Below are positions 12,201-64,000 of a DNA stretch of 64,000 nucleotides, piece by piece (within the stretch, counting starts at the first letter, position 1; the number at the start of each line of letters is the position of its first letter). The DNA comes from a virus (Duplodnaviria; Heunggongvirae; Uroviricota; Caudoviricetes): IMG/VR virus record IMGVR_UViG_3300036768_001066; one strand, 5' to 3'. The notes beneath the pieces are model-generated. The model saw only the letters and a list, made by a program, of their open reading frames with translations, was not told the DNA's origin and made no database searches. The position numbers were made by a program, and so were the translations under genes.

Positions 12201-12220
12201 ATTAGGTTTTTAATAATTTT

Positions 12221-17786: not shown

Positions 17787-17887
17787 GTAACTTATTGATT
17801 ATCAGCAAGATAGAGTATAAATGGAAAAGTCCTGGAAAACTTAATTTCCAGGACTTTTCCATAATGTATTGATAATCAATAAGTTAC
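17787..17887. repeat. nested inverted repeats in a 380-bp non-coding gap
   Basis: Outer 18-bp perfect IR: GTAACTTATTGATTATCA (17787-17804) and TGATAATCAATAAGTTAC (17870-17887). Inner 16-bp perfect hairpin: GGAAAAGTCCTGGAAA (17823-17838) and TTTCCAGGACTTTTCC (17845-17860). TATAAATG box at 17816-17823. Confidence 0.5.
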
Positions 17888-17935
17888 AAGTCACTCACCC
17901 TGAAGCATCTGCCGTGTGGTCACCTTTTGTTATCT

Positions 17936-18056
17936 CCTACGGTGACGGCGTACGCCGAGGTAGGAATCCACAGGTGCAAGTTCAAGGTCGGCGACCGTGA
18001 AGCCCAAGCCAAGACATTCCACAACAACAGGAACCTCGGCGTAGAGCCGCCTACGG
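17936..18056. other. GC-rich structured non-coding element (candidate small RNA or cis-regulatory structure)
   Basis: Local base composition is much GC-richer than the flanks. 12-bp palindrome CGGCGTACGCCG (17946-17957). 11-bp long-range complement TACGCCGAGGT (17951-17961) pairs with ACCTCGGCGTA (18033-18043). Repeated CCTACGG boxes. No ORF with a plausible start. Confidence 0.35.
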
Positions 18057-18080
18057 AAGGACTTGTCCACACAGATTTGT

Positions 18081-31550: not shown

Positions 31551-31778
31551 GGTTATCTTTTTGTTTGTCAATCGGCCTAATATAGGCAAATTTTCGGGTC
31601 CGATCAGCGACGGCTGGAGATTCTTCCACCGCGTAAGTACTTAACCGGTTACAAACCCTGGGGTTTTTGGGATAATTTTTTTATGCGCGTTTCGAACTTT
31701 TGTTTCGGCCGAAGCGCCGTTTCGTCATTTTTTTTTAGGGACCCGCGACAAATGGGCGATCCGCCGGTAATAGATGGT

Positions 31779-43099: not shown

Positions 43100-44755
43100 T
43101 TAGTAGAAATACTTGCTGACTATTTTGTAGTCGGCAAACTGGTTGGCAATATCAGAAAAGTCCTCCTTTACTTTGACCAAGAATGGTATGGTCGTATACA
43201 CCTTGTGACCAGGTTGTACCCTGTAGCACAGGTAATCGTCGAGCGTCATCTCCTCTCCCTTAGTGACTTCGTATATCCTCTGTAGCATGTGCTGACCGCG
43301 TATCAATACGCCGAACACTCCGAAGCAGTTGAGCGAATATACGTTATTGCCTATGTGTCTCGGGTTTGGTAGTCCGTGCCAGTGGCATCCAATGTACAGC
43401 ATTTCCCAGTCTTTGGGAACAGTGGACATTAGCTTCACGAATCTTTTGTTGAAGTCGGGCTGCAGTACAACGTCATCCTCAAACACACATATAGAATTGT
43501 GACCTTTGTCGAGCGCGTCCTTTATGGCATTGCGATGCGAACGCAGACATCCGACGGCACCTTTTATCTTGTCGCCTTGCATATCTCCGTGCCTCATGTG
43601 GTGCGTGCCCTCGATCTTCCATCCGTCCACCGCAAGCCAGCGCGTCACCTTGATGTTGTGCACGTCAAATTGCTGAGAAACCTCGAGCCATCTATCGTGC
43701 CTTCTCTCGAGGTTTATGCAGTACACTTCGTCCACCACATCGTTTAATGGACTTGGAGAAGACCCGAGTCCGAACAGAAGTTCAGGGTAGTTGAAGTACA
43801 TGAAGTCTTCGTATGATAGGAACTGCCTTATGCAGCGCTCATAGTTGTCCCTTATCGCCGGCAGCATCTTCTGGTACATATCAGGCGTCAGGGAGTTAAG
43901 CATCGTCTCGGCCTCGGCCAGGTTGTCTATCTGTATTATGCCGTTCGGATTAAAGAACTGAGCAATGGACGGGCATCCGTAGTATATCGGAACAGTGCCG
44001 GTCATGAAGCAATCTATCAGCTTCTCCGTGAAGTAATAATCCTCCTTCGTGTTCTCTATCGCAAAGGAGAACATGTAATCTTTCAAACCCTCTATCTTAT
44101 CCGGTATGTCGTTGAACCCGCGCCCGTATAAGTCAATCTTAGAGCGCAGGCGTTGCACGATTCTGTGGCGTAGATGATGTCCGCTTGTGAAGTTCTTGTT
44201 TGACGTTATCATCGACACCAGTTTGGTCTTGGGGTGCAGTCCCCAATCCTTCTCCTTTATCCAGCATGACCCGCCCGGAACAAACTTGAACCTGACAGGA
44301 TCGGAGTCGAGCAATGATCGCTTGAACGTAAATACCTTGTTGAACTGCGTTGCATTCTGAGCAAGCCACCCATACTCGTCTGTTGTTATCTCTGGTGACT
44401 CAATCATCCATGCGTACTTAGTCTTGCCGTTAAACATCCCGTGATTCTTGATGCTCGCATCCGTCATGAACACATAGTTGTACGCGTTAACGTTACGATC
44501 CCAGTCGAAATAACGTCTGTCGTCCGGCACGTGCCCGAACAGAGTGTCGGCAAGCGGCACCTTCTTCTTAGTTGCCGGCGGGGTTAGCGGAGCCGGCAAG
44601 CTGCCGACTACCTGCTCTGGCTTGAAATCATCCAAATCCTCCTGGCTGACTGGTGATTGTGGTGTGCTCACTTCTTCTTGTTTTTGTTGCTGGTTCAGTT
44701 TCTTCTGTACAAAATGTACCAACTTGCTTTTGTACTGTTTGCTGAAATATCCCAT
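43100..44755 (-). CDS. bifunctional glycosyltransferase: N-terminal GT10-like (alpha-1,3-fucosyltransferase motifs) + C-terminal GT25 domain
   Basis: FAIENTKEDYYFTEKLIDCFMTGTVPIYYG matches the FucT FxxEN...TEK motifs. C-terminal VYCINLERRHDRW ... GAVGCLRSH ... VFEDDVVL matches GT25 (LPS glycosyltransferase) hallmarks. Confidence 0.65.
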   Translation of the reverse strand: MGYFSKQYKSKLVHFVQKKLNQQQKQEEVSTPQSPVSQEDLDDFKPEQVVGSLPAPLTPPATKKKVPLADTLFGHVPDDRRYFDWDRNVNAYNYVFMTDASIKNHGMFNGKTKYAWMIESPEITTDEYGWLAQNATQFNKVFTFKRSLLDSDPVRFKFVPGGSCWIKEKDWGLHPKTKLVSMITSNKNFTSGHHLRHRIVQRLRSKIDLYGRGFNDIPDKIEGLKDYMFSFAIENTKEDYYFTEKLIDCFMTGTVPIYYGCPSIAQFFNPNGIIQIDNLAEAETMLNSLTPDMYQKMLPAIRDNYERCIRQFLSYEDFMYFNYPELLFGLGSSPSPLNDVVDEVYCINLERRHDRWLEVSQQFDVHNIKVTRWLAVDGWKIEGTHHMRHGDMQGDKIKGAVGCLRSHRNAIKDALDKGHNSICVFEDDVVLQPDFNKRFVKLMSTVPKDWEMLYIGCHWHGLPNPRHIGNNVYSLNCFGVFGVLIRGQHMLQRIYEVTKGEEMTLDDYLCYRVQPGHKVYTTIPFLVKVKEDFSDIANQFADYKIVSKYFY

Positions 44756-44756
44756 G

Positions 44757-45374
44757 TTATTTTAGTTTCCAATTTTCCCAAACAAAATCGTAATTGTATG
44801 TAAGTACGTGTGTCCTTGATAGGCGTGTCCTTATAGCGTCCCTGCGCTGCTGGCACTCCGGATAAAACGTATGGAATTGTACTTGAATATTATCGAGCTT
44901 CAAAAGTTCATCTGTAGTCAGGCAGTCAAGTAGGTCGTATTCGGCGCCCTCTATGTTTATCTTTATCAGGTCCACCTTCTGTATGTTTGCGAGGAACTCG
45001 TGCACCGAGTCTATAGTTATAGGCACCTTCTCGTCGCCCTCCGCGAACATGCCCGATCCATCTGCCGACATCGTTATGGTTGCATCGCTTTTCTCGTGAC
45101 CGAGCGCGGTCTGGTAAACGTGCACCTTTGGGCTGTTGGCGAACATCGCTTTGATGTTCTGGCAGAACGAGGCCACTGGCTCGAACACGTGTATCGTGCA
45201 TCCGTACATGTCGCTGATGGTCTTACCCCATTTGCCCTCGTACCCGCCGAGATCGATGACTACAGAATCCTGCGTTAGCGCATAGTTTACCCTGTGCGTC
45301 TGGTCTCCCCTGTTGTCGAACCACCTTCGTATCTCCGACATGAAGTGGTTGTGTAGCTGTTCTGGTGTCATCAT
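44757..45374 (-). CDS. FkbM-family methyltransferase
   Basis: VVIDLGGYEGKW and DLIKINIEGAEYDLL (FkbM signature). Confidence 0.65.
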   Translation of the reverse strand: MMTPEQLHNHFMSEIRRWFDNRGDQTHRVNYALTQDSVVIDLGGYEGKWGKTISDMYGCTIHVFEPVASFCQNIKAMFANSPKVHVYQTALGHEKSDATITMSADGSGMFAEGDEKVPITIDSVHEFLANIQKVDLIKINIEGAEYDLLDCLTTDELLKLDNIQVQFHTFYPECQQRRDAIRTRLSRTHVLTYNYDFVWENWKLK

Positions 45375-45892
45375 AGTTTTGCGACTAAAATATCATTCGG
45401 TATGTGTCCGTCCTCGTACGAGAATTTGTATCCTTCATTTATTTGTAGGATTTTCTCCTTTATGTCGTTCTCTCCGAACTTGATCTCCGGGTCCTCTACC
45501 TGCCAGCAGCGCATATCGTCCACGAGAATTATGTGGTTCTTGATGCCGTGCCGCTGGATCTGCTCGAACTCCTCTATGAGCGGGCAGTTCTTCTTGCCGT
45601 ACGCAGTCTCACCGGCGGACCAGTGCCCGTCGAGCCAGAACGTTATGGGAGTATCGACATCCTTTATCGCATCGTATAGCACGTCGGCGGAGTCGCCCTG
45701 CACTATCTTGACGTTTGGATTATCCTTGAATCTTGCAACGCAGTGGTTGTAGAATTTCTCGGACAGCTCTATAGATATGACCCTTTTGAACCCGGCGTCA
45801 AGCGCCCCTTGTATACCATCACCCATGTAAGAACCCGTTTCTACGAGGCAGGGATTTAGGTATTTCTTGAATGTATCTTTCTTTATTGGCAT
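45371..45892 (-). CDS. class-I SAM-dependent methyltransferase-like protein
   Basis: Motif I LVETGSYMGDG. Acidic motif ILVDD. Start set at internal ATG 45892 to avoid overlap with the upstream gene. Confidence 0.5.
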   Translation of the reverse strand: MPIKKDTFKKYLNPCLVETGSYMGDGIQGALDAGFKRVISIELSEKFYNHCVARFKDNPNVKIVQGDSADVLYDAIKDVDTPITFWLDGHWSAGETAYGKKNCPLIEEFEQIQRHGIKNHIILVDDMRCWQVEDPEIKFGENDIKEKILQINEGYKFSYEDGHIPNDILVAKL

Positions 45893-45906
45893 AGTATATT
45901 TATTCT

Positions 45907-46650
45907 TTATATTTTTGACCAGTTCTCTGGCAACAAGTCCTTTGTATCGAGGTTGTCGTACGCAGGTCCGAACCATTTGCCAGGCGCTATAACTCGTTTG
46001 TTGGGGTTTTTATTAAGGTACGCGCCCCACCAGCTGAAGCTCGAGTTTGCTATGACGTTGTGCTTGCACTTGGACATCAACATCAGGTCGTATACGTCCG
46101 GGTGCTGCTCGTCTACAAAAACAAACTTATTACCTACAAAATTCTCCCTACACCAGTTTATATCGTCAGAGAATATGACAAACGTACAATCACCCATCAC
46201 CTCCATAGCCCTGGTGTAATATGCCATGGGCATGACCGGATGGTGTTGCGACAGATTCACATAGTCCGTCCTCCTTATATGCAAAGAACAGGTATTGTCT
46301 CCGAACGATGCCGCGAGCGCGTCTATTTTTTCGGCGTGCTCTGGCTTTAGCTCGAAGTACCCGAGAGCCTCCTCTTTGTACTTGTCGAAGTACCGCCATG
46401 ACTGCAGGTATCCTACAATATCAAAGATGCCCTCGCCGACCTTTATCTCGCCGTAATGAAACCCTACCTCGTCCACCTTCGTAGCCGGCACTATTCCGGC
46501 AGGGAGCTCTTTTTTCATGTAGTGTGAGTACTTCCACTCTGGGAATATGTATTCGTGTCCGTTGGCGCGAGCTATTCCAATAACGGATGCTATCTGGAAC
46601 ATCTGGTTGCCGAGGCGGCCGTATTTGCCGAGATTGCTGAATGTTATCAT
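45907..46650 (-). CDS. alpha-1,2-fucosyltransferase (GT11 family)
   Basis: Canonical GT11 motif I GRLGNQMFQIAS at the N-terminus. HIRRTDY motif. C-terminal SSFSWWGAYL motif. Confidence 0.8.
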   Translation of the reverse strand: MITFSNLGKYGRLGNQMFQIASVIGIARANGHEYIFPEWKYSHYMKKELPAGIVPATKVDEVGFHYGEIKVGEGIFDIVGYLQSWRYFDKYKEEALGYFELKPEHAEKIDALAASFGDNTCSLHIRRTDYVNLSQHHPVMPMAYYTRAMEVMGDCTFVIFSDDINWCRENFVGNKFVFVDEQHPDVYDLMLMSKCKHNVIANSSFSWWGAYLNKNPNKRVIAPGKWFGPAYDNLDTKDLLPENWSKI

Positions 46651-47552
46651 AGACCTCTAATGTATTTCTTAGTTTTATCGTCAAGCTCTCCAGTTATGTC
46701 CATGCCGTTATCCGATTGCCACTGTATTATGGCCGCTCTTGTCTGTTCGTCGTATACACCAGTGCAGGACACGTTCATGCCGAGATGTATCATTCGGTTT
46801 TGCATTATTATTATATCGGTGTTACAGTCTCCGAACTTTGGGATGTATTCTGAAGGTTGTTCGTACGGGTAGAACTTGTAGTACGAATTGTTTATTATGC
46901 CGTCATCGTCCGGGTAGAAGTGGAAGTAGTCCCACGCGTATAATTTTTTAATTCGTTCAACCTGCTCCGGGAATGGGACGTACGAGTCCTTGTCAGATAT
47001 GTTCTCCCTGAAGTCCGGAACGTTTGTGCCGAGGATCTGGTTTATTCGTGGTATGACAGGGCCGTCTTCTATCCGCAGTATGTGGTTGAACCGGTCCCTT
47101 ATCGGTCCTTTGTGGCAGTTGTGGTTGTCCGGAAACAGGCACTGCAGATTTAGATGGTGCTCTATATTGGAGTCCATGTCCCGTTCTTCCAGAAACCTCA
47201 GCAGGTCCTCCATCCGCTCAATCTTGTGTTTGTTCAGGTTTGTCACACCGAGCACTTCAAGAACAGAATGGTTCAAAACCGACACAAGTCTGTCCACTGG
47301 GTTGCGGGTCACGAGGATGCTTACGTAGTCCTTTAAATTTTCGTCGTTGGATATTTTGAACGGGATTTCTATGTAGGGTACGACCATGTGCACCCTGTTG
47401 GAGGGCAGAGAAACCCCGTTGCCGTTTATCAATGCCACGTGCGAGTAGGTATCGCGGTCGACGAAGTAGAACCAGTTTTTGAGAGACGTGCAGGCGCACC
47501 TCGCGTTCCAGTACAGTATGAATTTTCTATTGCCGTTTATCAGTGGATACAT
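46647..47552 (-). CDS. sulfotransferase-like domain fused to a C-terminal peptidoglycan-binding (PG_binding_1-like) domain
   Basis: ILVTRNPVDRLVS matches the sulfotransferase 3'-phosphate-binding motif (RxPxxRxxS). C-terminus TGVYDEQTRAAIIQWQSDNGMDITGELDDKTKKYI matches the PG-binding helix repeats. Start at ATG 47552 overlapping the upstream stop (TAATG). Confidence 0.5.
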   Translation of the reverse strand: MYPLINGNRKFILYWNARCACTSLKNWFYFVDRDTYSHVALINGNGVSLPSNRVHMVVPYIEIPFKISNDENLKDYVSILVTRNPVDRLVSVLNHSVLEVLGVTNLNKHKIERMEDLLRFLEERDMDSNIEHHLNLQCLFPDNHNCHKGPIRDRFNHILRIEDGPVIPRINQILGTNVPDFRENISDKDSYVPFPEQVERIKKLYAWDYFHFYPDDDGIINNSYYKFYPYEQPSEYIPKFGDCNTDIIIMQNRMIHLGMNVSCTGVYDEQTRAAIIQWQSDNGMDITGELDDKTKKYIRGL

Positions 47553-48172
47553 TATTGTCCTGGAGGTTTCATTAGTCTGGTGTAGTCCATATATGCGTTC
47601 TGTATGTCGCTGTGCCCCGGCTTCTGCCACGCTATGCTCGGATTGAACACGTAGCAGTTGTGTGTTTTCTGAAAATCGGTATACGTGACGTCTATCTGGG
47701 ATTTGAACTTCTCCACCTCTGCTATCACCTCGGCCGCCATCTTCTTGGTTATGCCGTAGTGGCTCGTCGTGTACGTCCTAACTATCTTGGACACATTTTG
47801 CGTCACCGGTATCGGGTGGGCTATGTGGTTGCCCCCGAGATACAGCATGTCCCAATCGGCAGGCACCTGACCGATCCATTGGTGGAACTGGGCCGGCGCG
47901 TGCACGGAGAACTCTATGTCGTCCTCGAGGATCAGAATCCTCTCCCATCCCTCGTGCAGCATTCTCTTTAGAATGGTGGTGTGACTTAGCGAACACCCGA
48001 CTTCGCCAGGCGTTATTGCACAGTTTGGCGGCAATGCAATGGTGCTTCCGTCGACTGCGGAGAACCGTACGACGTCGATGCCGGCCTGCTCGAATTCCTT
48101 CAGGCACAGTTCCCATTTGTCAGTACGCTTATCAAGGTTGACGCAGAATATCTTGTCGAAGTACTTATTCAT
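47552..48172 (-). CDS. GT25-family glycosyltransferase
   Basis: IFCVNLDKRTDKW ... EVGCSLSHTTIL ... ILEDDIEF, typical of the GT25 family. Confidence 0.7.
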   Translation of the reverse strand: MNKYFDKIFCVNLDKRTDKWELCLKEFEQAGIDVVRFSAVDGSTIALPPNCAITPGEVGCSLSHTTILKRMLHEGWERILILEDDIEFSVHAPAQFHQWIGQVPADWDMLYLGGNHIAHPIPVTQNVSKIVRTYTTSHYGITKKMAAEVIAEVEKFKSQIDVTYTDFQKTHNCYVFNPSIAWQKPGHSDIQNAYMDYTRLMKPPGQ

Positions 48173-48482
48173 CTTTGTCTTTTATTCTTTTTATCAGATC
48201 CACCATTTTATTGACCGTATCAAAGTTCTCCGGTATCGCGAGAGCGTCCGGCACCTGTATGTCGAACTCATTCTCTATGAACACCAGCACGACCACCATC
48301 GAAAACGAGTCGATGTATCCGCCGTTTATCAGTGACGTATCATAATTGACATCGAACAAATCGTTGCACGTACACTTCTCAAATGGAGCATAGCAGTACG
48401 AGTAGTGGTGCCTCCTGTTTTCGCTGCGGTCTTGACTACCGAATTCTTTCTTTATGTAGTTAAGGATTATATCCTTCATCAC
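48165..48482 (-). CDS. acyl/aminoacyl carrier protein-like (ACP/DltC-like)
   Basis: GGYIDSFSMVVVLVFIENEFDIQVPD resembles the ACP helix-II motif with a DSxS phosphopantetheine site. Four-helix-length C-terminal 70 aa. N-terminal 35-aa extension is atypical. Confidence 0.45.
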   Translation of the reverse strand: MMKDIILNYIKKEFGSQDRSENRRHHYSYCYAPFEKCTCNDLFDVNYDTSLINGGYIDSFSMVVVLVFIENEFDIQVPDALAIPENFDTVNKMVDLIKRIKDKDE

Positions 48483-49063
48483 ACTATATTATTTTTTACG
48501 AACTCCCTTATGTACACAGGGTCTTGTATGTGTATCATGTTGTCGCTAAGTTCCTTCTGAAGGAACCCGTATTTGTCCGCATAATCATTGTAAACATCCA
48601 CAAATAAGAAATCGTTGGCGCCACACAGTTCTTTGTACCTTTCGTTCATGTACCTTATGTACTCTGCGCGCTCCGCATCTTCCCCATAAAATGGGAAATC
48701 CACGTTCTCTTTAGCATCCGCCTTCCTGAGGGTCGGAGGGATGTTGTACACCATGACCTTCACCCCTGGCATCTTTTCGATGTTGGCATTTATGGCCTCG
48801 AAGTAATTTTTTGCGATACTGTCCATCAGCATCCTGCTGCTCGACCTGAATTTGCCTATGTGGCACCTGCAGTCTATCTCTCCGAACGAGAAGCATACGT
48901 AATCGCCGGGCGCCACATTGAACCTCGGCTCGGATATATCCAGTATCTCCAATTTCTTACGGCCGAAACTCTGCGCCGTTATCGGTCCTATCCTGTTTGT
49001 AGAAACCCCCTCGATCTGGTCCCAGGCGAACCAAGCGTGACTATCTCCGAACGTATGAATCAT
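48479..49063 (-). CDS. SGNH/GDSL-family hydrolase or acyltransferase
   Basis: Block I IHTFGDSHAW (GDS-H) at the N-terminus. About 190 aa, typical of single-domain SGNH proteins. Immediately downstream of the carrier-protein gene. Confidence 0.5.
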   Translation of the reverse strand: MIHTFGDSHAWFAWDQIEGVSTNRIGPITAQSFGRKKLEILDISEPRFNVAPGDYVCFSFGEIDCRCHIGKFRSSSRMLMDSIAKNYFEAINANIEKMPGVKVMVYNIPPTLRKADAKENVDFPFYGEDAERAEYIRYMNERYKELCGANDFLFVDVYNDYADKYGFLQKELSDNMIHIQDPVYIREFVKNNIV

Positions 49064-49997
49064 TAGTTACCAGGTTTTTAATTTTGTCCGCCATGTGGTT
49101 CCACGTATAGTTGCGGTGAACCAGTTCGCAACCTGCCTGCGATATTCTTATCCTCTCGTCCTTGTTCCTCTCGTCAAGGTAGTATTCTATAAGTTCATCG
49201 AGTTCATCCAAATCGTGCCATACTCTTATATTGATCTTGTCTTCAAAATCGAGTTCTATGCCGGGGTACCACTTAGACAAGCACAGTGCCCCGCTGCCCA
49301 TTAGGCGTAGCATGCGGTCTGATGTGTACCTGAGCGCGTCGAAGTGTGACACGTTTATGGCCACCTTAGAGCTCCTGTAGCACTCGGCCTCCTTGGCCTC
49401 CCTGTACATGAAGTTACGCATGTCGTTACCCCACCCGAATCCGTACACTCCGAAATTTGTACCGTACTTGGACGACAGCGTGTTGACCATCTTGATTCTA
49501 TAGTCTGCCAGGGGGAAATCGTAGTCTTCCTTTGGGTAGTTGTTGCCCATGAAAACTATCTGTGGGTATTCTCCCACGCCACCGTCTGGCCTGAATATAT
49601 CATCGTTGAATCCGCTCTGGATGAACTCGGCGTTCATGCCGAGGGCGCGCATGAACATAACATCCTCATCGTTGGTGAACGCGGTTACGTCCACGGACCT
49701 CCCACAATCAATCATCCACTGAGGCGTAAGTTTTCGAAAGTCCCAGGTCCAGTTCACCTTAAACCCCGGTAGCTTGGCGAGCACCTCCGGCGTGTAGACA
49801 CCCGGTGATTGCACGTGCAGGAATATCAGGTCTGGTTTGAACCGCTCGGCCGTCTCTAACGTCTTCGCGTGAAGAGCCGCCGTGTTGTTGGGCACGGAGG
49901 TCCACAGAGTCCAGTCGAGGAACAGGTATTCGCTCGATGCGTCCGATAACGCCTTGCAGAGTGCGGGTACGGTAAATCCTATGTGCAGGGTCCTCAT
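49041..49997 (-). CDS. glycosyltransferase (CgeB/GT4-like C-terminal domain)
   Basis: About 320 aa. C-terminal half with ...VAINVSHFDALRYTSDRMLRLMGSGALCL... resembles CgeB-type GT-B domains. First gene of the minus-strand glycan block. Confidence 0.5.
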   Translation of the reverse strand: MRTLHIGFTVPALCKALSDASSEYLFLDWTLWTSVPNNTAALHAKTLETAERFKPDLIFLHVQSPGVYTPEVLAKLPGFKVNWTWDFRKLTPQWMIDCGRSVDVTAFTNDEDVMFMRALGMNAEFIQSGFNDDIFRPDGGVGEYPQIVFMGNNYPKEDYDFPLADYRIKMVNTLSSKYGTNFGVYGFGWGNDMRNFMYREAKEAECYRSSKVAINVSHFDALRYTSDRMLRLMGSGALCLSKWYPGIELDFEDKINIRVWHDLDELDELIEYYLDERNKDERIRISQAGCELVHRNYTWNHMADKIKNLVTNDSYVRR

Positions 49998-57110: not shown

Positions 57111-58424
57111 ATGTTTGCAAGCTACGACCAAATAGTACAGAACTTTCACAAGGGGTTCAAGAATACACCACAAGGAGAGACCGAGGACCCGACTTACCTT
57201 GGGTTTAAATTCATATTTGAATTCCATCCGTCGCATAGGGATCCGCTCGATAAAATGACGCATGACGCGCTATTTGCCGAGGCTGACAACCCACACGGTC
57301 TTGAGTCCGCCGAAGAATACTTGATGAACATTGGATATGTGGAGAAGGCAAAAATGCTGAGAGCGTTCAAACAAAACCTCGAGTACATAAACAACAAGAC
57401 GCCTTATTATTTCCAATCAGTTGAGGGTGTCGGCGATCTATGGAAGGTCGAGAAGGGCGAGACGTTCAATAGTTTCAGGGGTAAGGACAAGGTGCTAACC
57501 ATCAATTGTCTGGAGAGTATAGACATGAGGATAACCTCGCTTGCCGATATGTACAGGAAAGCTACATTTGATTATGTGGCCATGAGAGAACTGCTCCCTG
57601 AAAATTTGAGGCACTTTACCATGGTGTTGCAGGTGGCGGAGATGCGTAAGTTTCACAGGATTAAGAGCGCGGTAGAAAATGTATCGACGACCGATCAGGG
57701 CGTTATAGAAAACCCAACCAATGGCACCTTACAGGTATCGCTCGAGGAGGTCACCGATCTAATATCCATATTACAGTTCAAGCTCGAGTACTGCGAGTTT
57801 GATTTCGACGAGAGCTGGCCGACCGAAAACCTTTCACATGCGGAGATGGAGATGGCAAAGCAGAAATTCAAAATCAAGGTTGGTAGAATACGCGAGTACA
57901 ACATGTATTCCCAAATAAAGAGCTTTGATGACTCATACGTGGCCCTTGCCGATTCATACGGTGTTGATGACCGAAGCCGGGTAAACATCAAGGACGGCAA
58001 CGTTCCAGATCGCACATTGCTTAAGGACCAGATCAAGAGCCCCAACGAGCTCGGCTCTGCCTTCAGTAAGTCGTCAAATTACAGCACGCTCGGCACGCTC
58101 GTCGGCGGTTCCATAAGTGACCTTCAGAAGAAACTCGAGAGAGCCCCTGGCGACTTGGTCGCGCGTGGATTGAACCAATTACAAGAGCGGGTGAGAGATC
58201 GGGTTCTCGGTAATGTATACGGCGACGCCCGCAGCCAGTCATCACTCGGCGCCATACTTAACGGGTTCCTAAATAGGGAGGATCAGTTCACGGTACCAGC
58301 AGGTGACAACGTCTATCCGGCGCAACAGCCTGTGCCGCCTACACTTGGCAAGGAGGACGTGTACCCTAACGTACCGGAACCTCCTAAGGACAGTCCGACA
58401 GATTTAGGCAACGTATTCAAATAA
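57111..58424 (+). CDS. putative baseplate hub-type protein (437 aa), immediately upstream of the gp5-like spike
   Basis: Position-based inference only. In many contractile-tail phages and T6SS the gp27-like hub gene directly precedes the gp5/VgrG spike gene. Confidence 0.5.
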   Translation: MFASYDQIVQNFHKGFKNTPQGETEDPTYLGFKFIFEFHPSHRDPLDKMTHDALFAEADNPHGLESAEEYLMNIGYVEKAKMLRAFKQNLEYINNKTPYYFQSVEGVGDLWKVEKGETFNSFRGKDKVLTINCLESIDMRITSLADMYRKATFDYVAMRELLPENLRHFTMVLQVAEMRKFHRIKSAVENVSTTDQGVIENPTNGTLQVSLEEVTDLISILQFKLEYCEFDFDESWPTENLSHAEMEMAKQKFKIKVGRIREYNMYSQIKSFDDSYVALADSYGVDDRSRVNIKDGNVPDRTLLKDQIKSPNELGSAFSKSSNYSTLGTLVGGSISDLQKKLERAPGDLVARGLNQLQERVRDRVLGNVYGDARSQSSLGAILNGFLNREDQFTVPAGDNVYPAQQPVPPTLGKEDVYPNVPEPPKDSPTDLGNVFK

Positions 58425-58430
58425 TAAATC

Positions 58431-59204
58431 ATGAAAGTAAGAGAACTAAAGAACGACGACCTCAAGAGCATGGTGTTCATGGGTGAGGTTGTGGACATAG
58501 AGGACCCCATCAAGCAGGGTCGCGCCAGGGTGCGCGTGTTCGGAAAGTTCGACGACCTCGCGGACGACGAGATACCTTGGGCCAACCAGCAGATGGGTAT
58601 AACGTTTGGGACGGCCGGCGGTAGCGGCGCCATATCCATACCGAGGAAGGGCGCTGTCGTCAACGTCATGTTCGACAACGGAAATCTGTATTCGCCATAT
58701 TTCTATAACATACAGGAGGCGTCGCCGGATCTGCTCGAAGAGATAAAGAATTCCTACGAAGGTGCGCACGCGCTCATATATGATAAAGACGAGAAGGGTC
58801 TGAAGGTTTTTTACACCAGGGAGAAGGGTCTCAATTTCATCCTCGATGAATCGAGGGTGACAATAGAGAGCGATAACGCAATAGTCATAGAGCACAAGGG
58901 CACAAGTGCTATCATAGAACTCAGGGGCAACAACATCACGATAACGGCGGATTCCGAGATAAACGCGACAGCCGGATCGAGGGTCAAGGTCACCGCCCCA
59001 GAGGTCTGGATTGACGGCAAAGAGACTAAAACCGGTCACGTTGCATCGTACAGCCAGGTTCTTGGCGAGCCTCTGTTTGCCTTTCTGAAGACGTTATCGG
59101 CAGCTGTCGACGCTAAGCTTTACCCGACACCATCGGCCATGGCCTCGGCCTGTGCCTTGGCAGAACAGCTTACTCTGTCGCAGACTTGCAAAATATCCAA
59201 ATAA
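58431..59204 (+). CDS. baseplate central spike protein, gp5-like N-terminal OB-fold (no lysozyme domain)
   Basis: The N-terminus FMGEVVDIEDPIKQGRARVRVFGKFDD...IPWA matches the gp5/VgrG OB-fold signature (GxVxDxxDPxxxGRVRVRV...LPWA). C-terminal beta-rich segment. 257 aa. Confidence 0.55.
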   Translation: MKVRELKNDDLKSMVFMGEVVDIEDPIKQGRARVRVFGKFDDLADDEIPWANQQMGITFGTAGGSGAISIPRKGAVVNVMFDNGNLYSPYFYNIQEASPDLLEEIKNSYEGAHALIYDKDEKGLKVFYTREKGLNFILDESRVTIESDNAIVIEHKGTSAIIELRGNNITITADSEINATAGSRVKVTAPEVWIDGKETKTGHVASYSQVLGEPLFAFLKTLSAAVDAKLYPTPSAMASACALAEQLTLSQTCKISK

Positions 59205-59238
59205 AGCCGGATATATAAATAAAATATCGCCACGTTCG

Positions 59239-59613
59239 ATGAAAAAAATACAATCACTTGATAAGTTTGAAACTGTCAACGAGAAAGTTAAGTCACCTAA
59301 GGTCAGCGGCAGCTTCGAGATTTCCGACAACCTGAAGAAGGTAGCCAAAATCCAGAAGACCCTCATTGACCTCTCGCAGCTCCTAACGGAGATGTCGGAC
59401 GAAATAGTCCTACTCAAGACGACTTACACCAACCTGGATCCTGAGTCTATGAATATCCTCACCAACATGAAGTACAACATAGACAATATGGTCGGCGCAC
59501 TCAAGCGCGAGCGCAAGAGCGGCACAAACACAGGGGTTATTGACAACTCCAAAAGGCTGCAGAGAAATCTGGAGCGACTCAAGAAGGACTTCCTCGAGAG
59601 AAAGTCGGTATAA
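59239..59613 (+). CDS. coiled-coil protein (124 aa), start at internal ATG after the spike gene stop
   Basis: MKKIQSLDKFETVNEKVKSPK... is helical and charged. The longer listed ORF (59152) overlaps the spike gene. Confidence 0.45.
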   Translation: MKKIQSLDKFETVNEKVKSPKVSGSFEISDNLKKVAKIQKTLIDLSQLLTEMSDEIVLLKTTYTNLDPESMNILTNMKYNIDNMVGALKRERKSGTNTGVIDNSKRLQRNLERLKKDFLERKSV

Positions 59614-59635
59614 AATCCGCGGTAATAATTCACAG

Positions 59636-59666
59636 AACCCTCGCTAAGTCGAGGGTTTTTTATTTC
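59636..59666 (+). terminator. rho-independent terminator (plus strand)
   Basis: 8-bp stem AACCCTCG / CGAGGGTT with loop ctaagt. Followed by TTTTATTTC. Confidence 0.6.
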
Positions 59667-59708
59667 TTCCATTACGAGCTTTTTGTTATTATTGTAACAA
59701 ACGCACAG

Positions 59709-60524
59709 ATGAAGAAGACTGTACTAAATAAAGCTTGGCTCACCAACGAGAAAGGTGAGTTCTGCGGGGTGGACCTTGGGTCTGACTTTTGCGCCGAGCA
59801 CGAGTCGGGCATCGACCTGATCAAGGCAGCCTTTAATATCGACGGCATCGTCAAGAAAAAGGTCACCAAGATATTCGGCCTGCCCGTGCGCACCAAGGAC
59901 GAGCCGAACTTCGGACTGTCCGCGAGATTGATAAACACCATACCAAAGCAGTTCGTCCATGGTATAGCAGGCAAGCACAGGTTCATAGGATTCTACGACT
60001 CAATGTTCGCCAAGTGGATAGATACGCTCGTCAAGGACGCGGTTCGCGACATGCGGTTGCGCAAGGGATCTGATTTCGTGGCGTACTGGTGCGACAGGGG
60101 ATTCTTAATAGTATCGGACGACCAGTCAAAAATACTCGAACTCAAAGAGGCGTTTTACGCCCGCAACATCGCGATATTTCTCGGTAACAGCAACTTCATA
60201 AGCAATCGCGGGTTCGTTATAGCAATAGCGACCAAGCTTGACAAATCTATAACGGATGCCATGTATGTGGCCGACAAATCATCGTTCGAGTTGAGTAAGA
60301 AGGTAGAGGCTATGGGAATCTACGAAAAGCTGAAGACCGCCGGCAAAGATTATTATGCGTTGTCTCCGAGTTGGAACGACGACAAAACTGACGTAATATT
60401 CTGGTTGAATCCGGTCGAGCAGAGAAAGCACCATTACGGGTGGTTCACGCTCGCGGACCTCGAAGCGTGGATAAATGATGAAGGACCTATAATTAAAAAA
60501 GATAATGAAGAAGGAAAGGATTAA
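59709..60524 (+). CDS. hypothetical protein (271 aa)
   Basis: ORF opening a new transcription unit after the terminator. No motif recognised. Confidence 0.45.
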   Translation: MKKTVLNKAWLTNEKGEFCGVDLGSDFCAEHESGIDLIKAAFNIDGIVKKKVTKIFGLPVRTKDEPNFGLSARLINTIPKQFVHGIAGKHRFIGFYDSMFAKWIDTLVKDAVRDMRLRKGSDFVAYWCDRGFLIVSDDQSKILELKEAFYARNIAIFLGNSNFISNRGFVIAIATKLDKSITDAMYVADKSSFELSKKVEAMGIYEKLKTAGKDYYALSPSWNDDKTDVIFWLNPVEQRKHHYGWFTLADLEAWINDEGPIIKKDNEEGKD

Positions 60525-61035
60525 ATACAGGATGTACGGGTTCGTCCCGTACAACATCTCCGACATACAGAAGGGGATCCAGTTCGGCCACGCGGTGGTC
60601 GAGTACGCGTTCCAATACTCCGGAACCAAGGAGTTCAAGGAGTTCGCAAGGGAAGACAAGACGTTCATCATCTTGAACGGCGGGACCACGAACAACAACG
60701 AGCCGAGCGGCATGAGCAATATCGCGGAGGAGCTGAGCCAGCTGCCTGCCAAATTCAAGTTCGCCGTGTTCAACGAACCGGACTTAAATGACGCGCTCAG
60801 TGGCATAGCGTTTCTCGTCGACTCAAGGGTGTGGGACCGCGAGACATACCCGTGTCCGGTAGACGATATTTCAGGATTCCACGGGGTGCCGTATGCGGAC
60901 CGTGAGCGCTGGCTGAAGAATCAGGTCATCGATCAGCGAGATCCTGTCGGAGAGTACAAAAATTGGGTCAAGTCGGTCGGCGGCGAGACGAACGCGTTTC
61001 TCCGTTATTTTCTATCACAGTTCAAATTAGCGTAA
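60505..61035 (+). CDS. hypothetical protein (176 aa); weak resemblance to PTH2-type hydrolase N-terminal strand (QFGHAVVE), unverified
   Basis: ORF overlapping the upstream gene by 20 nt. Sits directly upstream of the Thg1-like gene, with a 1-nt gap. Confidence 0.45.
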   Translation: MKKERIKYRMYGFVPYNISDIQKGIQFGHAVVEYAFQYSGTKEFKEFAREDKTFIILNGGTTNNNEPSGMSNIAEELSQLPAKFKFAVFNEPDLNDALSGIAFLVDSRVWDRETYPCPVDDISGFHGVPYADRERWLKNQVIDQRDPVGEYKNWVKSVGGETNAFLRYFLSQFKLA

Positions 61036-61036
61036 T

Positions 61037-61846
61037 ATGATAAACATAAGGGACGTATATACCGAGGATGAGGTGAGGGCATTGTCGCTTGGCGACAGGA
61101 TGAAGTGGTACGAGAAGAACGTTGGCAAGGTGCTCTCGGAAGGTTATCCCGCCATAATAAGAATAGACGGCAAGGCCTTCCATACATACACCAACGGGTT
61201 CGAGAAGCCGTTCGACGAGCACATATCCGGTGCTATGCTTTACACCACTATAAAATTGTGCGAGGAGATACAGAACGTTAAGATTGCGTACATGCAGTCT
61301 GACGAGATTTCCTTGCTGATGACCACGCACCAGAACCCAGAAGCGGAGCACTGGTTCAAGGGCAAGGTCGACAAGATAGTGTCAGTGTCCGCATCGATGG
61401 CATCTGCGCACTTCAACGATTACATGGACAAGATGTACTGGAACCCGCGGATACTTGCCGCCGAGGTGGTAGGTGACGCGCCGAAACGCAAGCTCGCAGT
61501 ATTCGACGCTCGCGCGTGGAGCGTCCCTTTCGACGAAGTCAACAACGTATTCGTGTGGAGGCAGCAGGACGCCATAAGAAACTCGGTTTCGGCGTTGGCA
61601 CAATCCGAATTCTCGCACAAAGAACTCAACAAAAAGAACGTGGAGACCATGAAACAGATGCTCGCGGAAAGGGGTATACTCTGGCACGAACTGCCAGAGG
61701 TTCTGCAACGCGGTCACATAGTGGAGAGAGAGTACTACGAAAAGGACGGGGCGACCAGAAGTCATTGGGTTTCAAGCAAGACGATCCCTATATTTTCCGT
61801 TGATCGTTCCAAGGTATCCAAGTTCGTGGAAGTTACCGCGACCTAA
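61037..61846 (+). CDS. Thg1-like protein (tRNA-His guanylyltransferase / 3'-5' polymerase family)
   Basis: Family hallmarks AIIRIDGKAFHTYT (vs. RxDGRxFHxF) and AYMQSDEISLLM (vs. GQSDEYSF) at the expected spacing. About 270 aa. Confidence 0.75.
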   Translation: MINIRDVYTEDEVRALSLGDRMKWYEKNVGKVLSEGYPAIIRIDGKAFHTYTNGFEKPFDEHISGAMLYTTIKLCEEIQNVKIAYMQSDEISLLMTTHQNPEAEHWFKGKVDKIVSVSASMASAHFNDYMDKMYWNPRILAAEVVGDAPKRKLAVFDARAWSVPFDEVNNVFVWRQQDAIRNSVSALAQSEFSHKELNKKNVETMKQMLAERGILWHELPEVLQRGHIVEREYYEKDGATRSHWVSSKTIPIFSVDRSKVSKFVEVTAT

Positions 61847-61883
61847 GTTTTCGTTAATCAATTTTTATTCGTACCTTTGAACC

Positions 61884-63074
61884 ATGGAGAATAATGATAA
61901 ACCTAAAGTTGCACTGGCCCTAATCATCAACAAGGATGGTCAGGTGCTGGCCGTGTCGAGGAAGAACGACCTGTACGATTTTGGATTTCCTGGAGGGAAG
62001 GCCGAACCGAATGAGACGCCTGAGGACACACTCCGCCGCGAAGTATATGAGGAGACTGGACTCCACGTGGTCAATCCGAGGTACTTGACCGAACAAACCG
62101 ATGAGCACGGGTACGTATGCGGATTGTTTGTCTGCGATTACTACGCACCCAATAACTATTTCGATCCACATTTGTGGCCGACCAAGAACAACGAGACGGG
62201 CCGTGTCAAGTGGATGGATTGGCCAGAGTTCATTAGGATGTCCAAATCTCACCCTGGATACAACAAGGACGCTTATGAATTATATCAAAAATTCATCAAC
62301 GATTCCAAGCTGCAGGCAGGCAACTACTACATTCACAAAAGAACCGGCGAACTCTACCACATTTTACACCGCACGGATAACGATTGGTTGATGGTGATGT
62401 CGAGCTTCACGTCGAGACCGATAACAATGCCGGCGCAATTCATAGAGAATCGCGTCAAGCTCGCACCCCGCGTAATGTTTGAGTACAGCGCTTCGCGTAC
62501 AGCGGACATGGAGGTGAATCCCGAAAAATACCCGGTTGACGAGCGAGCCATGGTGTTTGCCATAGGCGCGCACAACTCAGTACTTCAAGATTATGACGAC
62601 CACATGTATTCAAAACATTTGTTTGATGTGCTGGATGTCTTTGATAAGTTTTCTCATTTGATACCGGTCAAGTACCACAGGTTGGTAAAGGCTGCGTTGT
62701 GGAACCACGATGTAATTGAGGACACCCGCAAAACGTACAACGACGTCAAGAAGCGGTTTGGCGAGTTCGTTGCCGACGGCGCTTACGCCATGAGCAACGA
62801 CAAGGACAAGAACAGACAGCAGAGAGCCGGGAAGAAGTATTACGATGGCCTACTCGAGTTCGAGTTCGGTGAGTTTAAGAAATTGTGCGACCGCATAGCA
62901 AATGTAACTAACGGCTTGAGGAATGGTAAGATGATCGACGGCTACCGCAAGGAGCAGCCAGACTTCAGGAATAAGCTCAGAAGCGGCGACAAGTACAAGG
63001 AGATGTGGGACTATCTCGATAATTTACTCGAAGGAAAAATTCAACCAATCTTAGAATATGAGCAGCATAGTTAA
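61884..63074 (+). CDS. Nudix hydrolase - HD-domain phosphohydrolase fusion protein
   Basis: Perfect Nudix box GKAEPNETPEDTLRREVYEETGL (Gx5Ex7REVxEExGL) at the N-terminus. C-terminal half has H...HD motif KFSHLIPVKYHRLVKAALWNHDVIEDT plus downstream D residues. Confidence 0.7.
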   Translation: MENNDKPKVALALIINKDGQVLAVSRKNDLYDFGFPGGKAEPNETPEDTLRREVYEETGLHVVNPRYLTEQTDEHGYVCGLFVCDYYAPNNYFDPHLWPTKNNETGRVKWMDWPEFIRMSKSHPGYNKDAYELYQKFINDSKLQAGNYYIHKRTGELYHILHRTDNDWLMVMSSFTSRPITMPAQFIENRVKLAPRVMFEYSASRTADMEVNPEKYPVDERAMVFAIGAHNSVLQDYDDHMYSKHLFDVLDVFDKFSHLIPVKYHRLVKAALWNHDVIEDTRKTYNDVKKRFGEFVADGAYAMSNDKDKNRQQRAGKKYYDGLLEFEFGEFKKLCDRIANVTNGLRNGKMIDGYRKEQPDFRNKLRSGDKYKEMWDYLDNLLEGKIQPILEYEQHS

Positions 63075-63735
63075 GAACATAGACAGCATCAACAAGTTGC
63101 TTGCTGATGTATCGTACAAGAACTGGACGTTTAAGGTGCGTGAGGGCTCTGGCGGTTTCATCCTGTCCGTAATCCCTGACATGGGGACGTTGACTGAAGT
63201 CGAGCGAGTGGAACTCAGGTTCAAAAAACCGCTGGCGATAAAGGAGTGGTACATATCCAGGTTCGCCACAGACACCGAGGTTGTACGCACGGCTTACAAG
63301 GCCGTAATGTTCATCGAGATGTTCATAGTCGAACACGCCCAATTCATCGACCTCGATACGTTCACGGAGATGACTTTCGACACGGAGCTCGGTGATAAAG
63401 AGAGGACTGCGATAATGCTCGTGTCATTCAAGTACAAGAACTGGAAGGTCCGTACCGAAGAGCGCGATGGCGGCCTGATGGTGCAAATAATTTTCGAGGC
63501 GGCAGATAACGACAATCCCGAAGTCGTAGAGGAGCAACATTGCCGGAAATTCATATACAACTACGAATCCGGACTGAACGAGCTGTTCCTAACGCTCCAT
63601 TACGCGGTGAAGACCGCAGAGGAACACGAGTGCAACGAACAGTTCACATACAAGGGCAAACAGATATACAACCCGCACATGGACCTCGACGCCATTGTGG
63701 AATTCATTAACACAAACGAGTTCGACCACCGATGA
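63058..63735 (+). CDS. hypothetical protein with internal tandem domain duplication (225 aa)
   Basis: YKNWTFKVREGSGGFILSVIP repeats as YKNWKVRTEERDGGLMVQIIF about 110 aa later. Confidence 0.45.
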   Translation: MSSIVKNIDSINKLLADVSYKNWTFKVREGSGGFILSVIPDMGTLTEVERVELRFKKPLAIKEWYISRFATDTEVVRTAYKAVMFIEMFIVEHAQFIDLDTFTEMTFDTELGDKERTAIMLVSFKYKNWKVRTEERDGGLMVQIIFEAADNDNPEVVEEQHCRKFIYNYESGLNELFLTLHYAVKTAEEHECNEQFTYKGKQIYNPHMDLDAIVEFINTNEFDHR

Positions 63736-64000
63736 ATTTCAAAGAGAAGTTTAAAGACAACTCCTCACACAACGAGGACGGAACCAAGAAGTTCGAGACT
63801 TACGGTTTCAGAGAGCCTGTATCCGCCGTAGAATCATATTCTGCGGATTTCGCCATCTCCTCCGTGCTAACAAAGACGGAAGGCGGCTGGCACGGCAGCT
63901 TCAGTATAAACCTCAACAATCTCAAACTCGACGAAATGACTGTGGAGGAGGCTAAGACAGAGCTTGAGGCGCTTGTCAATCAAACATTAAAGACCCTTAG
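63732..64000 (+). CDS. hypothetical protein, N-terminal part (continues past window end)
   Basis: ATG at 63732 overlaps the upstream TGA (ATGA). The frame is open to the window end. Confidence 0.4.
   Translation, partial: MNFKEKFKDNSSHNEDGTKKFETYGFREPVSAVESYSADFAISSVLTKTEGGWHGSFSINLNNLKLDEMTVEEAKTELEALVNQTLKTL

Follow-up and report, generated by a model that had tools for sequence, protein, structure and literature searches.

The small alarmone hydrolases (SAHs) encoded by Salmonella phage SSU5 (PaSpo) and by phage PVP-SE1 (PbcSpo) neutralise all the toxSAS toxins on which they were tested (Jimmy et al. 2020, PMC7229694), and phage SAHs counter toxSAS enzymes by means that include removal of the pyrophosphate placed on tRNA 3' ends (PMC7229694, PMC11245113). 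PaSpo has been used to detoxify CapRel, and toxSAS such as CapRel are effectors of phage defence (PMC9712102). The Thg1-like proteins (TLPs) are another family found in phages. The chemistry of the bacterial TLPs, as set out in one report (PMC4820378), is templated 3'-5' addition to 5'-truncated tRNA. An RNA-repair role for the Thg1 homologues of prokaryotes and viruses, including large DNA viruses, was predicted in 2010 from gene neighbourhoods with polynucleotide kinase (PNK), Macro and RNA-ligase genes (PMC2904730), and the authors of a jumbo-phage study assign the phage TLP to maturation of phage tRNA (PMC5259590). Here we describe a 64,000-nt window of DNA from a large uncultivated phage (IMG/VR virus record IMGVR_UViG_3300036768_001066), in which genes for a TLP, for a protein with a predicted PTH2 fold, and for a SAH fused behind a Nudix domain stand in a compact five-gene block at 59709-63735; all coordinates are positions in this window unless a related contig is named.

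We propose, with moderate confidence, that this block is co-transcribed and that its recognisable enzymes are all directed at the acceptor ends of tRNA or at pyrophosphorylated nucleotides, by which they would protect tRNA or counter alarmone-based defences. The enzymes of the block are individually known in phages; the Nudix-SAH fusion and the arrangement of the genes are new.

The Nudix-SAH fusion

The fusion protein (396 aa; 61884-63074, + strand) is encoded by one continuous open reading frame (ORF). Its Nudix domain (residues 8-123; 61905-62252) is followed by a linker, or small beta-rich middle region (residues 136-204; 62289-62495), and then by a RelA/SpoT-type HD hydrolase domain, the SAH (residues ~215-385; 62526-63038). 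An initial annotation of the window, made by inspection of the letters without database searches, had described this gene as a canonical Nudix box fused to an HD phosphohydrolase domain, and both parts of that description are borne out. Pfam NUDIX (PF00293) matches residues 8-123 at E=7.2e-18 (65.3 bits, cutoff 21.1), and phrog_990, labelled 'metal-dependent phosphohydrolase', matches residues 205-372. In an alignment of the window protein with 20 homologues (21 sequences) the HD motif is invariant, the full set of invariant residues being H230, H245, H275-D276, E279-D280, R311, R314, K333, D336 and N340. This series of H, HD, ED and D..N residues is the signature of the RelA/SpoT hydrolase domain.

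The same relationship emerges when the family profile is compared with solved structures. The best non-Nudix match is the Pseudomonas aeruginosa SAH (6z3n/6yvc, E=5.2e-10; 6z3o, E=7.2e-9), and the HDVIED of the window protein aligns with HDTLED of this SAH, and KLCDRIANV with KLCDRITNL. The profile also matches 7oiw (E=1.1e-7), 8acu and 6yxa, which were deposited as 'GTP pyrophosphokinase' and are presumed to be Rel-family enzymes, and it matches Drosophila Mesh1 (3nqw) at E=4.3e-6. The P. aeruginosa SAH is a distant relative, its similarity to the window SAH being visible with a profile only; the two proteins both match the same HD gene, in Pseudomonas phage PHB09, the window protein through its C-terminal domain. 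Single-sequence comparison with NCBIfam gave weak SpoT/RelA matches, confined to the HD motif region, and Pfam HD_4 (PF13328) scored 28.3 bits (cutoff 27.2) with the standalone homologue P0019 and 20.3 bits with P0018, the C-terminal 201 residues of the window protein giving no match at E<=10, which reflects the sensitivity of the model and not the loss of a motif. No RelA_SpoT synthetase domain was found in the fusion protein, where only the Nudix domain and a linker of ~70 residues accompany the HD domain. As judged from these sequence comparisons, the HD domain is a RelA/SpoT-type SAH with a single hydrolase domain. The suggestion of the initial annotation that the enzyme could degrade nucleotide messengers is strengthened by this assignment, the degradation itself being a prediction.

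How does this SAH compare with those already studied? PaSpo and PbcSpo likewise have a single phage-encoded RSH-type HD domain with no synthetase, and the same H...HD..ED...D..N motifs, a likeness of domain type. Unlike them, the window SAH follows a Nudix domain and a small linker domain in one polypeptide. SAH relatives are present in at least 143 deposited phage genomes.

The Nudix half reads G38-x5-E44-x7-R52-E53-V-Y-E56-E57-T-G59-L60, which is the consensus box GX5EX7REUXEEXGU. Its nearest solved relatives are MutT-type enzymes (E ~1e-9), and its best phage matches are the nudE/MutT genes of T4-like Acinetobacter phages, with 36-39% identity over residues 2-130. We classify it as a MutT-like minimal Nudix domain of ~130 residues. 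It resembles T4 NudE.1 and other MutT-type minimal Nudix hydrolases in its length of ~130 residues and its canonical box, and differs from them in being fused to a SAH. The middle region that joins the two halves has a conserved G-x-YY...T-G-E motif and a weak match to DUF6906 (E=0.0033, below the cutoff). It also stands N-terminal to the SAH in standalone members of the family that have no Nudix match (P0255, P0258, P0261, P0269, P0271 and P0277), whose match to the fusion-family profile starts at about profile position 120-135, just past the Nudix part.

The fusion is not a gene-calling artefact, because independent contigs share the architecture. No deposited phage had a protein covering 80% or more of it. 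A word-indexed search of 5.8 billion proteins (90% clusters) recovered 14 full-length fusions and one with a degenerate Nudix box, all of them metagenomic, and in an exhaustive HMMER search of 1.84 billion representatives (50%-identity clusters) 12 clusters matched the whole fusion profile. The latter search returned 754 proteins at E<=1e-30, and among the matches listed nearly all are standalone SAH-like proteins of 170-290 aa. With 754 proteins at this threshold against 12 full-length clusters, the SAH family is common and the Nudix fusion is a rare architecture. No paper on a Nudix-SAH fusion was found in the open-access literature.

The Thg1-like protein

The TLP gene (269 aa; 61037-61846, + strand) had been called Thg1-like in the initial annotation from the motifs RIDGKAFH and QSDEIS, and a profile search against the Thg1/TLP families gives strong matches. 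Pfam Thg1 (PF04446) matches over profile positions 2-130 of 130 with 106.3 bits (cutoff 29.2; E=1.4e-30), phrog_4717, 'tRNA-His guanylyltransferase', matches at E=2.5e-88, and the PDB entry 4kgk ('Thg1-like uncharacterized protein') aligns with residues 17-265 (200 bits, E=3.9e-58). The scores of the eukaryotic and archaeal structures of the family are far lower, at 33-39 bits for Candida Thg1, human Thg1 and the TLP 5axk (E ~1e-7 to 8e-9) and at 23 bits for 5xox (E=5e-4). The three metal-binding carboxylates of the palm domain, D44 (in RIDG) and D89-E90 (in QSDEIS), are present, both motifs being identical in 4kgk; across 11 phage TLPs D89 and E90 are invariant and D44 nearly invariant. The catalytic acidic residues on which a Thg1-like call depends are thus in place.

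To which branch of the family does the protein belong? Where Candida Thg1 reads WRQVDCHINNL the window protein reads WRQQDAIRNSV, and a segment AIRNSVS replaces the eukaryotic HINNLYN-type segment. By these scores and motifs the window protein is a bona fide bacterial-type TLP, not one of the eukaryotic, tRNA-His-specific Thg1 type. It resembles the Bacillus thuringiensis TLP (4kgk/4kgm; PMC3701042) in aligning over its full length, in having the same RIDG and QSDEIS motifs, and in lacking a HINNLYN-type motif; it differs in being phage-encoded, in a 16-residue N-terminal extension, and in a 14-residue insertion at residues ~137-150.

The statement in the initial annotation that Thg1-like enzymes are rare in phages did not hold up. 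By tblastn, TLP homologues were found in 164 of 50,697 deposited phage records, the family has its own PHROG, and a pattern scan of IMG/VR yielded at least 583 confirmed TLP contigs. Almost all of the deposited phages with a TLP have genomes of more than 100 kb, and most of these genes carry the label tRNA-His guanylyltransferase already; among the hosts are Bacillus, Prevotella (Lak phages), Caulobacter, Mycobacterium, Erwinia, Vibrio and Aeromonas. In mycobacteriophage Yeet the TLP gene is two genes from a polynucleotide kinase gene. An experimental study of a phage TLP was not found in the searchable literature.

The PTH2-fold protein

The gene immediately upstream of the TLP gene encodes a protein of 176 aa (60505-61035, + strand), which the initial annotation had tentatively called PTH2-like. 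This call is upheld at the level of fold and finds no counterpart at the level of sequence. An AlphaFold2 model (pLDDT 93.5) has an N-terminal alpha/beta domain of ~110 residues followed by a helical C-terminal extension of ~60 residues. When the model was compared with the PDB by Foldseek, the best 13 matches were all PTH2-family or PTH2-like proteins (probability 0.47-1.0, TM-score by target 0.41-0.61, E 0.009-0.16), the neighbours being MJ0051, AF2095, Bit1, PH1539, Sulfolobus Pth2, TA0108 and Atu0240. The 11 strongest matches have probabilities of 0.8-1.0 and TM-scores by target of 0.50-0.61 over 99-111 aligned columns, and the two weaker ones, the AF2095 NMR model 1rzw and Atu0240 (2gax), have TM-scores of 0.41-0.46. 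No sequence link to PTH2 (PF01981) was found by phmmer against the PDB or with Pfam at E<=10, and the family profile gave only spurious MHC matches in the PDB. As there is no sequence-profile match, we file the protein as 'PTH2-fold' and not as PTH2.

The 176-aa protein matches phrog_3668, labelled 'hydrolase', at E=9e-22. Its family has more than 2,500 members, largely from phage-like contigs, with no Pfam domain among the 120 matches listed, and the invariant residues are S19, I21, Q22, I25, Q26, H29, Y34, K52, G59-G60, F89, E91, D93 and G159-G160. The family shares with archaeal and eukaryotic PTH2/Bit1 (2zv3, 3erj, 1q7s, 1wn2, 1xty) the N-terminal alpha/beta fold of ~110 residues and a conserved Q-x-x-H-A helix motif, which we take to resemble the AQxxHA motif of PTH2; unlike those proteins, it has no detectable profile relationship, no Pfam model, and an extra helical extension of 60 residues. 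In the Certrevirus phages CR3 and PcCB7V a homologue is encoded one or two genes after a CCA tRNA nucleotidyltransferase, and one depositor had already named the Certrevirus homologue peptidyl-tRNA hydrolase. A PTH2-like gene lies within 2 kb of a TLP gene in two of 80 TLP loci from IMG/VR (L071 and L073). We regard the window protein as a tRNA-associated protein that is PTH2-like in its modelled fold only.

A further observation concerns LR756500.1, a 462-kb uncultured phage in which genes for a standalone SAH, a member of the family described above, and for a PTH2-like protein (4505-5095 and 11965-12531 in our locus L008) are 7 kb apart. Five tRNA genes are nearby, and no TLP gene was found within 24 kb. 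At the level of whole genomes, TLP, SAH and PTH2-like genes occur together in BcepSauron, in CBB/GAP32-like phages and in Variovorax phage V45v66.

Organization of the block

The five ORFs of the block are all on the + strand and are tightly packed, with junctions of -20, +1, +37 and -17 nt. The first gene, o271 (271 aa; 59709-60524), is overlapped by the PTH2-fold gene by 20 nt; the TLP gene starts 1 nt past the PTH2-fold stop; and the fusion gene is overlapped by 17 nt by the next gene, o225 (225 aa; 63058-63735), which matches phrog_1540 ('unknown function') at E=1.7e-21. Upstream of the block is a baseplate cluster (57111-59613) with a Phage_base_V/baseplate-hub homologue at 58431-59204, and the 95-nt gap between this cluster and o271 contains a terminator-like hairpin (59634-59659, + strand) with a 10-bp stem followed by a T-run. 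A hairpin and T-run are found in the equivalent gap of three related contigs (L001, L002 and L003), and in two of the three the stem sequence differs, L002 having a 12-bp stem. Terminator-like sites are not enriched in the region (8, against 6.1 +/- 2.4 in shuffled sequences), so that the argument for a boundary is based on the position and conservation of the hairpin. The hairpin probably marks the upstream boundary of a transcription unit, and since its position is conserved among relatives we infer that the DNA from 59709 onward is a separate unit, with 59709-63735 as one co-transcribed auxiliary block. A sigma-70 promoter scan of the region gave a count not above that of shuffles; the consensus is probably unsuited if the host belongs to the Bacteroidota.

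The o271 protein is conserved and has no assigned function and no recognisable fold; the residues E30-H31-E32 are invariant. We considered o271 as an obligate partner of the TLP and rejected the idea: within 6 kb of three distant homologues, whose huge-phage contigs are 43-692 kb long, there is neither a TLP gene nor a SAH or PTH2-like gene. When the block was examined with PADLOC (defence and anti-defence libraries), the only matches were a generic Nudix match (PDC-S07) and a marginal DpdA match for o271 (E=0.0065, 13.9 bits).

Relatives and tRNA context

The source of the window is a large uncultivated myovirus related to Bacteroidota phages and to metagenomic 'huge phages'. A megablast search with 59700-63800 against the 50,697 phage records gave zero matches, and the relatives of the window phage are metagenomic contigs, with Bacteroidota phages and huge phages more distantly related. 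We compared seven Logan/JGI contigs found by protein-identity look-ups (L001-L007) and a 482-kb contig from the IMG/VR scan (L013). The order baseplate hub, o271, X, TLP, (X), Nudix-SAH is preserved in all eight, with identity of the fusion proteins falling to 34% and with the genes in between (X) turned over. The PTH2-like gene is detectable in L001-L004 only, and o225 is conserved downstream of the fusion gene in the same four contigs only. In L006 an ORF between the TLP and fusion genes has a weak I-HmuI-like match (E=7e-4, below the cutoff) and is possibly a homing endonuclease.

In L005, L006, L007 and L013 the block is followed, after 2-9 kb, by an array of tRNA genes (Glu/Asp/Ala/Cys). 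The initial annotation had seen the block as a tRNA-related module; these arrays, and the position of the PTH2-like family beside a CCA-adding enzyme in the unrelated Certrevirus phages, support a connection with tRNA, with acceptor ends as the probable site of action.

Are the phage tRNAs themselves in need of a TLP? The acceptor stems of 28 tRNA genes from five loci (L005, L006, L007, L013 and L008) have mostly normal pairs at positions 1-3. The exceptions are the expected G3-U70 in most tRNA-Ala, G-U at positions 2-3 in two tRNA-Ala of L007, G2-U71 in one tRNA-Asp, G3-U70 in one tRNA-Glu, and a position-3 mismatch in one tRNA-Cys. Editing of mismatched 5' ends of phage tRNAs by the TLP, in the style of protist mitochondria, is therefore unsupported, the 28 tRNAs being essentially normal at their acceptor stems.

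Other features of these loci deserve mention. The tRNA-Glu genes of L005, L006, L007 and L013 (TTC and CTC anticodons) have a G1-U72 wobble in 10 of 10 cases, where the other tRNAs have G1-C72, and most tRNAs of the same four loci lack an encoded CCA. L005 encodes an SmpB homologue (17809-18540 in that contig; Pfam SmpB E=5.5e-49) with an N-terminal extension of ~100 residues, ~2 kb past a seven-gene tRNA array, and ARAGORN found no transfer-messenger RNA (tmRNA) gene in the L005 locus. A P-loop kinase gene lies one to three genes past the Nudix-SAH gene in L001 (9807-10466), L002 (7685-8377) and L003 (10352-10969). We considered this kinase as a PNK partner of the Thg1-like protein and rejected it, as it is a clear homologue of CoaE, the dephospho-CoA kinase (Pfam CoaE E=1e-29 to 4e-33; PDB CoaE E=1e-20). 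Nucleotidases of NT5C type are encoded at a similar position in L002, L005 and L006.

RNA ligase and other genes of the window

The initial annotation had also drawn in a distant gene with a KxDG adenylation motif, and this gene (29933-31174, - strand) does encode an Rnl1-type RNA ligase. The motif reads E-K91-L-D-G-T, Pfam RNA_lig_T4_1 (PF09511) scores 44.5 bits against a cutoff of 28.3, and phrog_562 matches at E=8.9e-40; TIGR02308 scores 54 bits against an equivalog cutoff of 242. The ligase gene does not belong to the block, from which it is separated by 30 kb; it is encoded on the other strand, within another gene cluster. The window resembles the T4 Pnkp and Rnl1 system in having an Rnl1-type ligase with KxDG. 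It differs in the low score of the ligase with the equivalog model, in the lack of linkage between ligase and block, and in having no Pnkp among the 36 larger ORFs of the window, the set that was compared with Pfam and/or PHROGs.

A calcineurin-type metallophosphoesterase gene (26773-27660, - strand) is 2.3 kb from the ligase gene. Its product matches Pfam Metallophos (E=5.6e-12) and phrog_246 (NinI-like phosphatase), and has a weak match to a PHROG labelled RNA ligase. This phosphoesterase might stand in for Pnkp and heal 3' ends for the ligase, and it is a more natural candidate for that partnership than the Thg1/Nudix-SAH block.

Elsewhere in the window, a protein like ribose-phosphate pyrophosphokinase (24527-25522, - strand; phrog_619, E=3.4e-26), with a weak match to a nicotinamide phosphoribosyltransferase PHROG, may belong to a phage NAD+ reconstitution pathway. 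An Rfam scan of the whole window gave no family above threshold. An unusually dense set of sugar-modifying genes (31683-35503, + strand, and 43100-49997, - strand) encodes GT2, GT10, GT11, GT25 and GT1-like glycosyltransferases, a GT2-methyltransferase fusion, and a sulfotransferase fused to a peptidoglycan-binding domain (46647-47630). A 573-aa protein (12221-13942, - strand) has an N-terminal TPM-phosphatase domain (E=6.6e-35), and an ATP-grasp protein of RimK/TTL/YheC-D type is encoded at 38552-39688 (+ strand), another ATP-grasp gene being present at the end of L007.

Discussion

What might the enzymes of the block do? Templated 3'-5' nucleotide addition to 5'-truncated tRNA is the chemistry expected of a TLP, and by analogy with the bacterial enzymes the window TLP most likely extends tRNAs that are short of 5'-terminal residues, by templated addition of nucleotides in the 3'-5' direction. 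By analogy with PaSpo and PbcSpo, the SAH half most likely removes 3'-pyrophosphate groups, the substrates being (p)ppGpp or (p)ppApp, or tRNA 3'-CCA ends that have been pyrophosphorylated by a toxSAS of the CapRel/FaRel2 type; either activity would keep translation going during infection. The Nudix half most likely breaks a pyrophosphate bond at the 5' side of those nucleotides or of related ones, and the PTH2-fold protein probably hydrolyses an ester at the tRNA 3' end, that of a peptidyl-tRNA or of an N-blocked aminoacyl-tRNA. We envisage these enzymes as acting in parallel on a common target, tRNA and the alarmone pool, and not as catalysing successive steps of one pathway.

One can go further and suppose that the PTH2-fold protein, the TLP and the Nudix-SAH fusion form a dedicated system of 'tRNA acceptor-end decontamination', each enzyme reversing the lesion made by a different toxin, an idea that we think quite improbable as it stands. 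The TLP would be directed against 5' truncation, the SAH against 3'-CCA pyrophosphorylation by toxSAS, and the PTH2-fold protein against N-acylation of aminoacyl-tRNA by GNAT toxins; the fused Nudix domain would make of the protein a new kind of bifunctional enzyme, one able to take pyrophosphorylated nucleotides or RNA ends completely apart, and o271 might be a tRNA-binding or sensing partner.

Several observations weigh against our proposal of a block devoted to acceptor ends and pyrophosphorylated nucleotides. The 176-aa protein is like PTH2 in fold and not in sequence, the fold scores are modest, and, of the catalytic Lys and Asp of archaeal Pth2, the Lys presumably has Gln in its place in this family. 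None of the NCBIfam equivalogs placed the Nudix domain in a substrate-defined subfamily: the scores, similar among the MutT, RppH, YtkD and NudE-type models, are 16-38 bits throughout, and the cutoffs are 98-475. No tRNA or tmRNA gene was detected by ARAGORN in the window, which ends 926 nt past the fusion gene. A SAH gene is near the TLP gene in only one of 80 IMG/VR TLP loci with 10-kb flanks, and that one is L013, of the same broad lineage, so that the linkage of TLP and Nudix-SAH is confined to one phage lineage and could be inherited gene order. In L007 (7929-9572 in that contig) the TLP is cut short at 194 aa and has Ser at the D44 position, the Nudix box is degenerate, and the SAH is fully conserved. 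It follows that the SAH functions independently of the TLP and the Nudix domain, and that the genes are not an obligate pathway; L007 resembles a natural 'dissection' of the block. The gene order is conserved, but the linkage is absent from the 79 other viral TLP loci, and a shared function is therefore no more than plausible.

Are the genes of the block, then, simply unrelated neighbours? By such an account the TLP matures phage tRNAs, adding G-1 to a phage tRNA-His or tidying the 5' ends of the array, the fusion suppresses the stringent response by destroying host (p)ppGpp from both ends, neither has a link to defence, and the clustering is inherited order. Several Nudix enzymes (MutT, NudG, Ndx8 and NahA) degrade (p)ppGpp, which counts in its favour, as do the restriction of the linkage to one lineage, the decay of TLP and Nudix independently of the SAH in L007, and the phage tRNA arrays near the block in relatives. 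The jumbo-phage authors' assignment of the TLP to tRNA maturation (PMC5259590) agrees with it, and the authors of a phage-genome study propose a SAH and a pyrophosphohydrolase as (p)ppGpp modulators (PMC12846349). Against it, no tRNA-His gene was found in any related locus, in a search that covered these loci; nothing at the 5' ends of the 28 phage tRNAs examined calls for repair, their acceptor stems being normal; synteny has held down to 34% identity despite turnover of the in-between genes; and the phage SAHs that have been tested neutralise tRNA-modifying toxSAS (PMC7229694, PMC11245113). On balance we consider this explanation, the main alternative to our own, possible but rather unlikely. 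A different substrate range is conceivable for the fusion, in which the SAH acts like Mesh1, an NADPH 2'-phosphatase, and the Nudix half like T4 NudE.1, on ADP-ribose, Ap3A/Ap4A or FAD, with the outcome that NAD(P) and ADP-ribose pools are remodelled or non-canonical RNA caps removed. Mesh1 is indeed among the structural relatives, the phage genes that the Nudix half matches best, in T4-like Acinetobacter phages, are of the nudE/ADP-ribose pyrophosphatase kind, a CoaE-family kinase is encoded downstream in relatives, and a hint of metabolism related to NAD comes from the Prs-like gene found elsewhere in the window; metabolic promiscuity is reported for an orphan SAH from bacteria (PMC9765508). 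The nearest solved relatives, however, are SAHs of bacteria, enzymes that break down (p)ppGpp and (p)ppApp, with E=5e-10 for the P. aeruginosa SAH against 4e-6 for Mesh1, and no sequence feature examined separates the candidate substrates. We hold this cofactor-directed role to be distinctly unlikely.

In the scenario of the initial annotation, the block would work together with the distant Rnl1 as a single route of RNA repair that counters anticodon nucleases, the TLP and the Nudix-HD protein being the end-healers. Repair by T4 Pnkp and Rnl1 counters PrrC, and the window does have an Rnl1-type ligase, with the calcineurin-type phosphoesterase close to it; phosphoesterases of this type can heal 2',3'-cyclic phosphate ends. 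Thg1-family genes adjoin PNK, Macro and RNA-ligase genes in bacteria (PMC2904730), and Pnkp in phage Yeet. The neighbourhoods described by Anantharaman, Iyer and Aravind (2010), who already noted large DNA viruses and listed phage 201phi2-1, are like the present one in placing a Thg1-family gene among genes for RNA-end-modifying enzymes. The partners here are unlike theirs, being a PTH2-fold protein and a Nudix-SAH with no PNK or Macro, and the nearby kinase of relatives is of the CoaE family. The anticodon-repair scenario also has to contend with the distance, strand and separate cluster of the ligase gene, and with the want of a polynucleotide kinase among the 36 window ORFs scanned. Moreover, what a TLP restores is the 5' acceptor end and not a broken anticodon loop, and the HD domain belongs with the RSH hydrolases and is no 2',3'-phosphoesterase. 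We thus found no specific support for an anticodon-nuclease repair toolkit, and judge it very improbable.

What would follow for phage biology? Phage TLPs are annotated in hundreds of genomes, and phage SAHs serve as laboratory tools to detoxify toxSAS; a lineage in which a TLP, a PTH2-fold protein and a Nudix-fused SAH stand in a tight block beside tRNA genes offers a concrete test case. If the genes act independently, the gain is an upgrade of annotation, from 'HD phosphohydrolase' to SAH, and from 'hydrolase' (phrog_3668) to a PTH2-fold, tRNA-associated protein. If the fusion strips pyrophosphates from tRNA 3' ends, or degrades alarmones from both ends, it would be a new enzyme architecture in phage counter-defence. 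In that case phages would also be shown to protect the acceptor ends of tRNA, and not the anticodon loops alone.

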